A DNA stretch of 64,000 nt from Mobula birostris (taxonomy: Eukaryota), in NCBI RefSeq assembly GCF_030028105.1, contig NC_092370.1:108266793-108330792 (forward strand), read 5' to 3'. The first letter of the stretch is position 1. Every line of letters starts with the position of its first letter. This document shows positions 60,501 through 61,743 of this stretch, one piece after another. The notes beneath the pieces were generated by a model, which did not search any database, was not told the origin of the DNA, and saw only the letters and a program-made list of their open reading frames with translations. Position numbers and translations under genes: made by a program.

Positions 60501-61743
60501 TCGAGCAGTCATCGACCAACTGCATAAAAGGTTGCTATGGAGATGAGGAAAAATATAGAATAAGATGTCCTGTAGTGTAGTAGCGTATGTGACCATTCCT
60601 ACCTAACCCATACAATTTGCCACATTGTTCTACAGGAGTCCTATGTCACCACCATGATATGTGGAATAGTGAGTGAGGAGGGGTTGCAGTACAATGCACT
60701 GTGATGCATAAGCAATTAGAAAAACAAAAGGCTGGAAGCAACGATGGATCAAAAAGTGATTGTACAAATATTTTGCCTATTCAAATATTAATGTCAGATA
60801 TTATTGCAATTAGAATGGAGATGATTTAATCTGCATCTCTTTGCGAACTTTGGACACTTGTGTTACTTTTCTTATTACTGTCAAATGACAATTGTTCCAC
60901 CAAAATAGAAGGTTTAATTTCTTTTGAAGGATGGTCTAGCAAGAGAAGTCAGTACTGGGACGCCATTGCATGCATCTTAATGCTGCAGAGGGGTCTGATA
61001 TGATCTATCGCATTCAACAGGCTCAGTCTAACTTAATCACCAAAGTCACTGATTCTGGGTAAAAAGCATGAAATTGCTCATCTTTAGAGGGGGTATGTCA
61101 GCAGTCTTGTGGGTAAATGCCAAAATTGCCCTGAAAAATCTGCTGCTTCTCTTCTGCAGACAGAATCAGAGAGCTTGGATCTGTTGTCTTGCCTTAATCA
61201 GAGCGTGTGGTACAGGAGCCATTTACACCTGAACTGCAGCAGCAAGAGAGTATAAATAACAGTCTTGTGCATCTTCGTTTGGTTCAAACTAAAGCTTGTA
61301 CGGAAATGTTTCATGATGGTTAATAATTTCCACCTGCAATTTTACTAACAAAACTGGTTCTCTCTCCTTTCATCATCTGTCCTGCAGGAAGGCAGTGAAG
61401 GCAATTTTAGTTCTGCTACCCCTTCTTGGCATCACCTACATGTTGTTCTTCATCAATCCAAGCAAAGATGGCATCTCACATTTTGCTTTCCTCTACTTCA
61501 ATTCATTCCTGCAGTCCTTTCAGGTGGGTAATCCGGTAAGATTGTCTGACAACTCATAACCTGAGCCTCAAAGCAATTTGCCACCTTAATTTATGATCCA
61601 AACTGGATCTTTTTCTTAAGCATGCGCAAGTTAGATGCTTAGCTAACAGTGACTATCAAAACGTGCTTCAGAACTCAATTTAACACCCTTGTGTTTTACA
61701 GGGTTTCTTTGTGTCAGTGTTTTACTGTTTCCTGAATGGGGAG
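1199..61743 (+). CDS. CRHR2: Corticotropin-releasing factor receptor, CRHR2-like and divergent; partial gene, 9 coding exons in window
   Basis: Manual splicing gives an uninterrupted frame: [287 protein letters not shown]. All introns are GT-AG with compatible phases. Family assignment is secure; exact orthology to CRHR2 is not. Confidence 0.93.
1610..1850. repeat. Interspersed repeat, probably a LINE 3' tail; related copies at about 19640-19765 (same orientation) and 58365-58480 (inverted)
   Basis: Shared motif 'tcaaagtacat...tatactacc(c/t)tgagattc' in three places; family not identified. Confidence 0.65.
1883..2852 (+). mobile_element. Non-autonomous hAT (Charlie/SPIN-like) transposon with N-terminal transposase remnant
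   Basis: TIRs caggggtggccaacct ... aggttggccacccca; identical 8-bp TSD gtctaatt at 1875-1882 and 2853-2860; internal MSKRKAGSD...[29 protein letters not shown]...[23 protein letters not shown] from about 2445. Confidence 0.9.
4908..5115 (+). mobile_element. HE1/V-SINE-like fragment
   Basis: V-domain-like core 'ctccagtttcctcccacattccaaaa...ggttgactggtcactgtaaattgcccctagt'; a smaller inverted piece lies near 19020-19080. Confidence 0.7.
5247..5868. mobile_element. Tc1/mariner superfamily (pogo/Tigger-like) MITE
   Basis: Termini cagtggatt ... aatccactg, each flanked by TA (5245-5246 and 5869-5870); no coding capacity. Confidence 0.8.
5960..8090 (+). mobile_element. Degenerate CR1 LINE ORF2 (endonuclease to RT), internally rearranged
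   Basis: Recognisable [31 protein letters not shown] and [17 protein letters not shown] motifs with many frameshifts and stops. Confidence 0.9.
6884..6955. mobile_element. Tiny hAT-type MITE remnant inserted in the CR1
   Basis: Interrupts CR1 homology; ends in aaaaggtcgggaacccctg (hAT-like TIR) followed by ctttagag, which resembles the Charlie NTCTAGAN target. Left TIR mostly lost. Confidence 0.5.
8088..8185. repeat. Short Penelope-like / elasmobranch palindromic repeat, half copy
   Basis: 'atgctgcttgacccatcaagttcctcagcagc...ttcagattctagcat' is related to copies at about 36050-36250, 38075-38240, 38330-38430, 56430-56520 and 58560-58700. Confidence 0.55.
9400..9805 (-). mobile_element. CR1 3' fragment, degenerate
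   Basis: Begins with inverted CR1 3'UTR (catagaacaatacagcacag) followed by inverted ORF2 C-terminal sequence. Confidence 0.8.
11105..14525 (+). mobile_element. Older CR1 3' fragment (about 11105-11245 plus 14080-14525) split by a younger CR1
   Basis: [13 protein letters not shown]...RVQRxFTxxLxG breaks at about 11245 and resumes as tagagagcgtgtcttacgagg at about 14080. Confidence 0.85.
11246..14079 (+). mobile_element. CR1 LINE, near-complete ORF2 (APE endonuclease plus RT) with stops and frameshifts, plus 3'UTR
   Basis: ORFs 11250-11729 (ITETW, YRPP), 12230-13123 ([23 protein letters not shown]), 12991-13266 (KFADDTK), 13267-13779; tail tctatgtctctatgtttctat. Confidence 0.97.
15284..15899 (+). 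mobile_element. Non-autonomous DNA transposon (hAT-like) with 6-bp TSD and a zinc-finger first exon
   Basis: TIRs cagacattctacc / ggtggaatgtctg; TSD aaggtg at 15278-15283 and 15900-15905; gccATGg at 15547 starts [11 protein letters not shown]...[27 protein letters not shown]...KRHIE, then donor gtgagt at 15722. Confidence 0.85.
15387..15532 (+). repeat. Interrupted (GA)n microsatellite inside the transposon
   Basis: Runs of gagaga interspersed with ccacga/gcacga units. Confidence 0.9.
17590..17900 (+). mobile_element. Old CR1 3' fragment
   Basis: Degenerate 'gaatct...agagggtcactgctta...tttgaatttgtttaaggcagacgtagttagattcttcataagtaagtgggtgaa'. Confidence 0.6.
17950..18665 (+). mobile_element. 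Decayed RTE-clade LINE 3' portion
   Basis: Eroded ANIP...QLxxAGH...[11 protein letters not shown]...KC...[15 protein letters not shown], resembling the RTE C-terminal QLRWAGH / GGQxKRFKDxLK / WExLAxDRxxWR block. Confidence 0.65.
19080..19510 (-). mobile_element. CR1 RT fragment
   Basis: Inverted QGSVLGSL / LDEKV / AEKWQMEFN sequence. Confidence 0.8.
20268..20576 (+). mobile_element. CR1 3' end, 5'-truncated
   Basis: [31 protein letters not shown], 3'UTR, tail tcttgtgatcttg. Confidence 0.9.
21203..21736 (-). mobile_element. Tc1-derived non-autonomous element, copy 1
   Basis: TIR taaagtggccgctgagtg followed by TA; ORF 21368-21568 [30 protein letters not shown] resembles a Tc1 transposase N-terminal HTH. 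Confidence 0.85.
23664..26890 (-). mobile_element. Young CR1 LINE with 915-aa open ORF2 (APE endonuclease plus RT), 5'-truncated in the end of ORF1
   Basis: ORF 24049-26796 has [50 protein letters not shown]; the C-terminus continues in ORF 23763-24026 after one frameshift; tail (catagaaa)n at 23664-23688. Confidence 0.98.
28911..31582 (-). mobile_element. CR1 LINE (5'-truncated ORF2) inserted antisense into the outer CR1
   Basis: ORFs 31051-31404, 30372-30584, 29496-30299, 29055-29471; catalytic FADD eroded to YTYN; tail (catatataac)-type repeats at 28911-28940. Confidence 0.95.
30751..31086 (-). mobile_element. Short CR1 3' end inserted into the middle CR1
   Basis: ORF 30879-31088 [22 protein letters not shown]...; flanked by attta at 30746-30750 and 31087-31091. 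Confidence 0.92.
32355..32854 (-). mobile_element. Tc1-derived non-autonomous element, copy 2
   Basis: TA-cactcagtggctactttatta ... taataatgtagccactgggtg-TA; internal sequence colinear with 21203-21736. Confidence 0.85.
34979..35085 (+). CDS. CRHR2: CRH receptor exon: stalk and TM1 (107 nt)
   Basis: tttcag acceptor; [35 protein letters not shown](R); donor gtatgt. Confidence 0.94.
36050..36250. repeat. Penelope-like palindromic short repeat with degenerate hammerhead-like core
   Basis: Imperfect inverted arms (gcagtatctgtggagagagaagcagag / cctatagatgctgcctgacttgctgagttcctccag) around ctgaagaagggttatagaccaacac. Confidence 0.6.
36270..37500 (-). mobile_element. Very old CR1 fragment carrying a solo LTR
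   Basis: Eroded inverted ORF2 C-terminus (ccaggtattaatctagtcaaccttctctg; atccaagtcattc = NDLD). Confidence 0.7.
37156..37399 (-). mobile_element. Solo LTR, 244 bp
   Basis: TG...CA termini; 5-bp TSD ccttt at 37151-37155 and 37400-37404; removing it restores the CR1 sequence gtgcctttatccaagtca. Strand inferred only from an AGTAAA signal on the minus strand. Confidence 0.75.
38075..38240. repeat. Imperfect inverted repeat of the Penelope-like short-repeat family
   Basis: ctgctggagga...gagcagcatctg...ggggggtgggggagggg pairs with cctccacaccacccccc...atgctgctc...tcttccagcag. Confidence 0.7.
38656..38773 (+). CDS. CRHR2: CRH receptor exon: ICL1, TM2, ECL1 (118 nt)
   Basis: cacag acceptor; [39 protein letters not shown]; donor gtaagc. 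ECL1 length and LITTFILRN are CRHR2-type. Confidence 0.96.
38934..39416 (-). mobile_element. Young CR1 3' end
   Basis: C-terminal part of ORF 39030-39659 ([26 protein letters not shown]...GYGEKAG); tail tagacaatagtcaatagacaatag. Confidence 0.95.
41405..42088. mobile_element. Solo LTR, 684 bp, probably Gypsy
   Basis: Termini tgtaa...tttca; flanks catg (41401-41404) and cctg (42089-42092), a 4-bp TSD with one mismatch; it splits a repeat tail (ggctgtattcatg | tatggcagaaaggcaattaaacttgaac) whose uninterrupted relatives lie at about 22980-23070 and 40010-40080. Confidence 0.75.
42395..42548 (+). CDS. CRHR2: CRH receptor exon: TM3, ICL2, start of TM4 (154 nt)
   Basis: ttttag acceptor; [51 protein letters not shown] contains the class B NxxWMxxEGxYLH signature; donor gtaagt. 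Confidence 0.97.
43457..43517 (+). CDS. CRHR2: CRH receptor exon: TM4 (61 nt)
   Basis: ccatag acceptor; (C)[19 protein letters not shown](E); donor gtaagt. Confidence 0.96.
44995..45067 (+). CDS. CRHR2: CRH receptor exon: ECL2 and TM5 (73 nt)
   Basis: tatag acceptor; [24 protein letters not shown]; donor gtaagt. Confidence 0.94.
46705..47140 (+). mobile_element. CR1 3' fragment, degenerate
   Basis: [26 protein letters not shown] and CR1 3'UTR. Confidence 0.85.
47285..47795. repeat. GC-richer interspersed repeat, possibly RTE 5'UTR-derived
   Basis: Composition shift against AT-rich flanks and motifs resembling RTE-associated leaders (ctaggagaagg...actctga); family call is tentative. Confidence 0.4.
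48840..49425 (-). mobile_element. Rex1/Babar-type LINE 3' fragment
   Basis: ORF 48978-49295 [12 protein letters not shown]...[10 protein letters not shown]...[12 protein letters not shown] matches the Rex1-type C-terminal region. Confidence 0.85.
50011..50096 (+). CDS. CRHR2: CRH receptor exon: TM5 end and ICL3 (86 nt)
   Basis: aacag acceptor; [28 protein letters not shown](R); donor gtaatt. Confidence 0.97.
50410..51357 (+). mobile_element. Fairly young CR1 3' portion
   Basis: [36 protein letters not shown]; tail tcttatgttcttatg. Confidence 0.95.
51640..55825 (+). mobile_element. Degenerate long CR1 (ORF1 esterase end, ORF2, 3'UTR) interrupted by a Rex1 element
   Basis: [10 protein letters not shown]...[20 protein letters not shown] (ORF1 end), [23 protein letters not shown]; tail tcctatgtcctatggtctta. 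Confidence 0.92.
53646..54535 (-). mobile_element. Rex1/Babar-type LINE, 5'-truncated, inserted in CR1
   Basis: ORF 54069-54527 [12 protein letters not shown]...[19 protein letters not shown]...NKTKKM; ORF 53926-54129 [12 protein letters not shown]1 resumes at aataagccaaaatcagca. Confidence 0.9.
55920..56400 (+). mobile_element. Old L2-like LINE 3' fragment
   Basis: Eroded [13 protein letters not shown]...EFKVFIF...HGPG...[10 protein letters not shown] resembles the L2 C-terminal KLxLIQNxAARIL / FKILxL / LHGLAP block. Confidence 0.55.
58960..59790 (+). mobile_element. Very old CR1 endonuclease-to-RT linker fragment
   Basis: Eroded [21 protein letters not shown] and [10 protein letters not shown] motifs. 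Confidence 0.6.
59810..60160 (+). repeat. RTE-related non-autonomous repeat (tentative)
   Basis: Contains gaagaaggcaatgataagccactt, similar to the gaaggcaatggcaaaccact motif of RTE-derived SINEs. Confidence 0.45.
61388..61523 (+). CDS. CRHR2: CRH receptor exon: TM6, ECL3, TM7 start (136 nt)
   Basis: ctgcag acceptor; [45 protein letters not shown] (PLLG motif); donor gtgggt. Confidence 0.96.
61702..61743 (+). CDS. CRHR2: CRH receptor exon: TM7 (the 42-nt exon typical of class B1 receptors)
   Basis: ttacag acceptor; [14 protein letters not shown]; donor gtaagc. Confidence 0.96.

Follow-up and report, generated by a model that had tools for sequence, protein, structure and literature searches.

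We found that the gene for corticotropin-releasing hormone (CRH) receptor 2, CRHR2, of the ray Mobula birostris encodes isoleucine at position 6.42b of transmembrane helix 6 (TM6), a position at which other vertebrate CRH receptors have threonine with few exceptions. Nine exons of this gene lie in a 64,000-nucleotide stretch of contig NC_092370.1 (assembly GCF_030028105.1, forward-strand positions 108,266,793 to 108,330,792), hereafter the window, with positions counted from its first letter. The identification of the gene as CRHR2 and the fixation of the Ile in rays and skates are, taken together, nearly certain. As the best explanation of its effect, to which we assign a probability of about 45%, we propose that ray CRHR2 is still gated by hormone but has a loosened off-lock, with modestly raised basal or agonist-driven cyclic AMP (cAMP).

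The window reads GCA ATT TTA at 61401-61409 on the + strand, and the ATT codon at 61404-61406 encodes Ile6.42b (I316 in M. birostris CRHR2 numbering). The translation of the exon around it (61388-61523) gave gap-free alignments with human CRF2R and CRF1R chains, both with Thr at this site (five alignments shown of seven matches). By alignment, Ile6.42b corresponds to CRF1R T316, five residues ahead of Pro6.47b, and T316 is numbered 6.42b in PMC10886364 and PMC12467512. His2.50b (38684-38686), Glu3.50b (42464-42466), and Tyr7.57b (61723-61725) were all encoded in in-frame GT-AG exons. Compared with the canonical HETx lock in its human-receptor form (His2.50, Glu3.50, Thr6.42, and an aromatic residue at 7.57), the window has Ile in place of Thr with the other three residues present, and the window CRHR2 carries what marks a Jansen-type change, a substitution at an HETx position. 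An earlier reading of the window made from the letters alone (the sequence-only reading) had placed a Thr-to-Ile codon at this TM6 position, held its three partners to be retained, and taken Thr as the normal CRH-receptor residue; the codon, translation, and human alignments, the partner codons, and the receptor survey below bear out each of these statements. The departure from the conserved Thr at 6.42b is real.

The same reading had suggested a polymorphism or an assembly error, and a single C-to-T change does turn Thr into Ile. We rejected this suggestion. Ile6.42b was present in 21 of 21 batoid CRHR2 records, which represent separate assemblies of eight species (Pristis, Narcine, Leucoraja, Rhinoraja, Hypanus, Hemitrygon, and two Mobula species) and all four batoid orders, while the CRHR2 of the shark Mustelus has Thr. 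Contigs from all four sequencing runs used (of 24 listed) showed no departure from ATT at 61404-61406; three of these runs are from other organisms and other studies, and the fourth (run X2) is possibly the source of the window DNA and not independent. Contigs lose rare alleles, and it is the orthologues that decide the point of fixation. An error or private allele is, on this evidence, vanishingly improbable. Because every ray and skate CRHR2 checked has Ile, the residue is an old inherited state. The exonic differences seen in the run contigs numbered five, four of them silent and one a Met-to-Ile change at 6.54b; one further difference, known from table counts, is G to A, which is impossible within ATT. 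Met6.54b (ATG, 61440-61442) is found in the window and in M. birostris, with Ile in the other seven batoids and ATA in the contigs of the three other organisms, an apparent return of M. birostris to the ancestral residue.

Among 336 CRH-receptor proteins, 6.42b was Thr in 304, Ile in 23, and Ala in one, with the motif missing in eight. The 23 sequences with Ile comprise the 21 batoid records, the window exon, and a CRHR1-like protein of the lungfish Protopterus annectens (XP_043910998.1; one record from one assembly). Thr was found in Mustelus CRHR2, in shark and chimaera CRHR1-like proteins, and in lamprey. On the simplest reading, Thr6.42b appears to have changed to Ile once on the batoid stem and to have been kept in all four orders, and the lungfish Ile appears to be a separate gain because it sits in the other paralogue, within the CRHR1 clade. 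Shark CRHR2 is sampled by one record, that of Mustelus, since a Heterodontus protein labelled CRHR2-like was dropped after proving 100% identical over 133 residues to the CRHR1-like protein of the same species. No further shark CRHR2 was found among the listed members of 10 clusters (up to 15 each) or in another search. The only Ala, in CRHR2 of the jerboa Jaculus jaculus, comes from a single UniRef model with several other odd residues and may be an artifact of the model or the assembly. Among the matches listed (15 of 26 cluster members), none was a ray CRHR1 protein. A second contig, with nine differences, matched the short exon region at 61700-61752 in three of the four runs and is a paralogous class B1 exon, perhaps that of CRHR1.

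What is published on Thr6.42b suggests how its replacement could act. In inactive PTH1R, this Thr is bonded through water to Glu3.50b and also to Tyr7.57b (PMC10166269; similarly PMC7431577). The PTH1R changes H223R and T410P raise basal cAMP (PMC10166269), and GCGR T351A is described as having "highly increased basal activity" (PMC7355025, citing Hjorth 1998). HETx mutations, in CRF1R perhaps at another residue than 6.42b, are also reported to activate GCGR, VPAC1R, and CRF1R (PMC10166269, citing Yin 2017). PTH1R T410R is also active, to a lesser degree than T410P (table in PMC4814114), so activation at 6.42b depends on the residue substituted. The sequence-only reading was correct in counting Thr6.42b as part of the HETx lock that holds class B1 receptors inactive (PMC10166269) and as lining the small-molecule antagonist pocket of CRF1R (PMC10886364); the latter point has little weight because such drugs are CRF1R selective and the window gene is CRHR2. 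That reading therefore stands in its position, numbering, partners, and known role of Thr and falls in its suggestion of an error or polymorphism. Three points were absent from it: the assignment to CRHR2, the altered agonist contacts on the same branch, and the occurrence of the same Ile in lungfish CRHR1. We found no paper on ray CRHR2 or remarking on its 6.42b residue in a literature search whose coverage excluded most subscription journals.

We propose the following for the loosened lock. In the off state, the hydrogen bonds of Thr6.42b tie TM6 to Glu3.50b and Tyr7.57b. Ile6.42b should be unable to form these bonds, and TM6 would open more readily because the hydroxyl is lost. The receptor would keep its need for CRH- or urocortin-type peptides with a lower activation barrier, and the predicted outcome is basal cAMP modestly above, or agonist efficacy above, that of an Ile-to-Thr revertant. 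More speculatively, the loosened lock could offset weaker agonist contacts after the loss of Tyr5.39b and Ile5.44b, described below; this link comes from their co-occurrence on a single branch.

Several points weigh against this proposal, and many of them favor a different reading in which the Ile side chain settles into the core formed by TM3, TM6, and TM7, restrains TM6 roughly as well as Thr does, and leaves signaling ordinary, the exchange having drifted in during a period of faster ray CRHR2 evolution. We consider this a close rival of the loosened lock, if short of an even chance. Like Thr, Ile is branched at the beta carbon, and it may occupy the cavity more fully than Ala or Pro would. 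Work by Schipani in 1997 reportedly saw no activation from the T410P equivalent in a CRH receptor, while most T410 substitutions are said to be activating in human PTH1R. The activating 6.42b changes met in the literature were Pro and Arg in PTH1R and Ala in GCGR, and none was Ile; among the main texts searched, none reported an assay of a CRH receptor with Ile at this position. Nothing on 6.42b was found in PMC8801358, PMC5063953, or PMC9637140.

Distant relatives add to the case for a tolerated exchange. An exhaustive search yielded 138 new class B1 representatives, 101 of them with less than 60% identity and a TM6 register that could be fixed. Position 6.42b in these 101 was Thr in 55, Leu in 28, Ala in seven, Ile in five, Met in three, Val in two, and Ser in one. 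Thr6.42b is thus no requirement for class B1 membership, since 46 of the 101 lack it, and a non-polar residue was present in 45, nearly all of which keep the His and Glu. Of nine non-polar relatives looked up, seven could be named: an insect diuretic hormone receptor (Leu), an amphioxus CRHR-like protein (Ala), crinoid, brachiopod, snail, and abalone receptors (Ile), and a hagfish PTH receptor (Met). Non-polar residues at 6.42b are, by these sequences, common in nature, and insect diuretic hormone receptors respond to their hormone. Nothing on the basal activity of invertebrate class B1 receptors was found in the literature search. The hagfish protein, an Eptatretus model (UniRef A0A8C4QPY0), has its Met at the PTH1R T410 site, another vertebrate departure at the Jansen position. 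Within the CRH receptors, the lungfish CRHR1 Ile and the Ala of the jerboa CRHR2 model also speak for tolerance.

The batoid branch itself is long: its stem of 0.22 matches the longest of the other inner branches among the CRHR2 sequences of the tree. Batoids differ at 9 of 207 near-invariant columns, defined as constant to 97% or more across 44 other vertebrate rows. Given this long stem and these changed columns, the Ile could be one among several changes that were tolerated. The batoid changes showed no significant bias toward the outer half of the receptor (6/9 versus 59/159; p = 0.09). Against tolerance stand the Thr of 304 CRH-receptor proteins, which indicates strong vertebrate constraint, and the persistence of Ile, which neither reverted nor moved on in eight species while Met6.54b became Ile and then Met again in M. 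birostris. As a fact of sequence, the Ile is firmer than the sequence-only reading held. Given that non-polar 6.42b residues are common in distant relatives and that none of the activating changes met was to Ile, raised ligand-independent Gs activity is less certain than that reading supposed.

Other batoid changes bear on how far the receptor may have departed from hormone control. At the positions examined, no local compensation is visible, because His2.50b, Glu3.50b, and Tyr7.57b are kept in eight of eight batoids and none of the 16 G-protein contacts listed in PMC10886364 departs from the usual CRHR2 residue. The antagonist-pocket positions are likewise in their usual CRHR2 state at 13 of 14, the sole exception being 6.42b. 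On the peptide side, Tyr5.39b is replaced by Val or Ile in all eight batoids (Val in the window, at 45038-45040), whereas the 41 other CRHR1/CRHR2 rows, as well as Mustelus, lungfish, and lamprey, all have Tyr, and Ile5.44b is replaced by Val in seven of the eight. Asp8 of urocortin 1 touches Tyr5.39b in both human CRF receptors, and Ile5.44b forms part of the pocket that receives Leu8 of CRF and Ile7 of urocortin 1 (PMC10886364). The loss of Tyr5.39b is possibly as important as the change at 6.42b. K262 in extracellular loop 2 (ECL2) and E336 in ECL3 (CRF1R numbering) were also changed in all eight batoids, E336 to Lys.

The loss of the lock Thr and of the agonist-contact Tyr5.39b on one branch, the changed ECL2 and ECL3 residues, and the intact G-protein face would fit a ray CRHR2 that is largely independent of hormone, with strongly constitutive Gs signaling set by expression and a peptide pocket that is degenerating or has been adapted to a different peptide. 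However, most listed peptide contacts are kept (W259, N196, D269, Q273, Y327, F203, F331, N348, and the C188-C258 bridge), the HRM domain scores 67.6 bits against a cutoff of 26.2, and the thorny skate retains crh1, crh2, and ucn1 (PMC9353778). The kept contacts, the ectodomain, and the skate hormone genes therefore argue against a receptor that no longer needs its hormone, and we regard this reading as improbable. A broader claim, that CRHR2 is naturally constitutively active in all rays and skates, with tonic cAMP controlled by expression, the Jansen-type residue and the agonist-contact Tyr having been given up together and lungfish CRHR1 having gone a similar way separately, seems unlikely to us from the sequence comparisons. 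Beyond 6.42b, lungfish CRHR1 shares two of its five changes with the eight of 206 columns changed in batoids (C128 and K262; p = 0.012), an overlap that is only a hint, being post hoc and in columns that also vary in other rows. CRF1R C128 we take to be 1.48b, provided S130 is 1.50b.

An effect in the opposite direction, with Ile forming a tighter hydrophobic lock that lowers basal activity and efficacy, would agree with the frequency of aliphatic residues at 6.42b in distant relatives, and its bulkier non-polar side chain could be buried more favorably in the inactive receptor. Every published 6.42b substitution that we met was activating, however, and damping seems very doubtful to us.

The assignment of the window gene as a CRHR2 orthologue, a class B1 (secretin-family) G-protein-coupled receptor, follows from several comparisons of its product. 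Nine + strand exons between 1199 and 61743 were located by tblastn with batoid proteins; all have AG/GT ends, and their spliced product of 287 residues contains no stop. This one gene takes up the whole window. All 287 residues are identical to residues 83-369 of M. birostris CRHR2 (XP_072124132.1), with three residues differing from M. hypostoma CRHR2. That M. birostris protein, identical over the window exons, matched Pfam 7tm_2 at 238.9 bits in addition to HRM, and two window exons individually clear the 7tm_2 cutoff. PxxG in TM6, Asn5.50b, and the C188-C258 disulfide pair mark class B1, and Val3.40b, Val5.43b (Val or Ile expected), FVEG in TM3, and Gln7.46b are diagnostic of CRHR2. In a 44-row tree, the window grouped with the batoids (clade support 100/100), whose sister was Mustelus CRHR2 (96/91), and the CRHR1 rows formed a separate clade (100/98), with the deeper CRHR2 backbone not resolved. 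A fold search with a model of M. birostris CRHR2 gave CRF2R structures 7TRY, 7TS0, and 6PB1 as best matches. The single-sequence model was poor, with a predicted local distance difference test score (pLDDT) of 50, and the alignment-based model (pLDDT 77.6) supports the fold only, the match to active-state structures being uninformative on basal activity.

The first of the nine exons (1199-1284) encodes the end of the extracellular hormone-binding domain, and its HRM match lies below the curated cutoff. The exon at 34979-35085 encodes TM1, with batoid Cys-to-Ser (CRF1R C128) and Ala-to-Val changes, and that at 38656-38773 encodes intracellular loop 1 (ICL1), TM2, and ECL1, including His2.50b. 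TM3, ICL2, and the start of TM4, with Glu3.50b, are encoded at 42395-42548; TM4 and the start of ECL2 are encoded at 43457-43517; and ECL2 and the top of TM5 are encoded at 44995-45067, with Val5.39b and Val5.44b (45053-45055). The exon at 50011-50096 covers lower TM5 to ICL3, with Asn5.50b and G-protein contacts as usual. The TM6-ECL3-upper TM7 exon (61388-61523) contains Ile6.42b, PxxG, and the Glu-to-Lys change that batoids have in ECL3 (CRF1R E336), and a 42-base exon (61702-61743) encodes lower TM7 with Tyr7.57b. The first exons, which precede the window, and the last exon (helix 8 and tail) were not found within the 64 kb.

Within the introns, a 921-codon stop-free frame at 24052-26814 on the − strand, in the 33.7-kb intron, encodes endonuclease and reverse transcriptase domains and is, by its sequence, a fairly young long interspersed nuclear element. 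Further reverse transcriptase fragments lie at 12212-13120 (+) and 29499-30326 (−). A 221-codon stop-free frame at 39033-39695 (−) had no Pfam match, and the window contains 21 self-matches longer than 150 bases at about 64 to 78% identity.

By sequence comparison, Ile6.42b is a genuine and ancient variant shared by a whole clade, in a receptor already known and at a site that matters for its function. The site is one where a gain-of-function mutation causes human disease, and throughout a vertebrate superorder a substituted residue there is the ordinary condition of a stress-axis receptor. If basal cAMP is raised, rays would have a different CRHR2 signaling set point; if it is not, a hydrophobic residue can replace the polar lock without neighboring change, which would limit activity prediction based on HETx. 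The sequences are already public. The window product resembles other vertebrate CRHR2 proteins in FVEG, Val3.40b, Val5.43b, and Gln7.46b and is identical to the M. birostris record over its 287 residues, but it differs from shark, lungfish, and tetrapod CRHR2 in Ile6.42b, Val5.39b, Val5.44b, a Ser for CRF1R C128, a Lys for E336, and an altered ECL2. Like PTH1R T410P and T410R, of Jansen chondrodysplasia, and GCGR T351A, the ray receptor has lost the hydroxyl at the same position with the partners retained; what sets it apart is that the new residue is Ile, that an entire superorder normally carries it, and that the ray case is known from sequence. Lungfish CRHR1 shares with batoids Ile6.42b, the kept His, Glu, and Tyr, and the changes at C128 and K262, but it is the CRHR1 paralogue and keeps Tyr5.39b. 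The insect, amphioxus, crinoid, brachiopod, snail, and hagfish class B1 receptors have the same His-Glu-nonpolar-Tyr core, with Leu, Ala, Ile, or Met at 6.42b, but are only about 35 to 50% identical, and the packing around the lock may differ.

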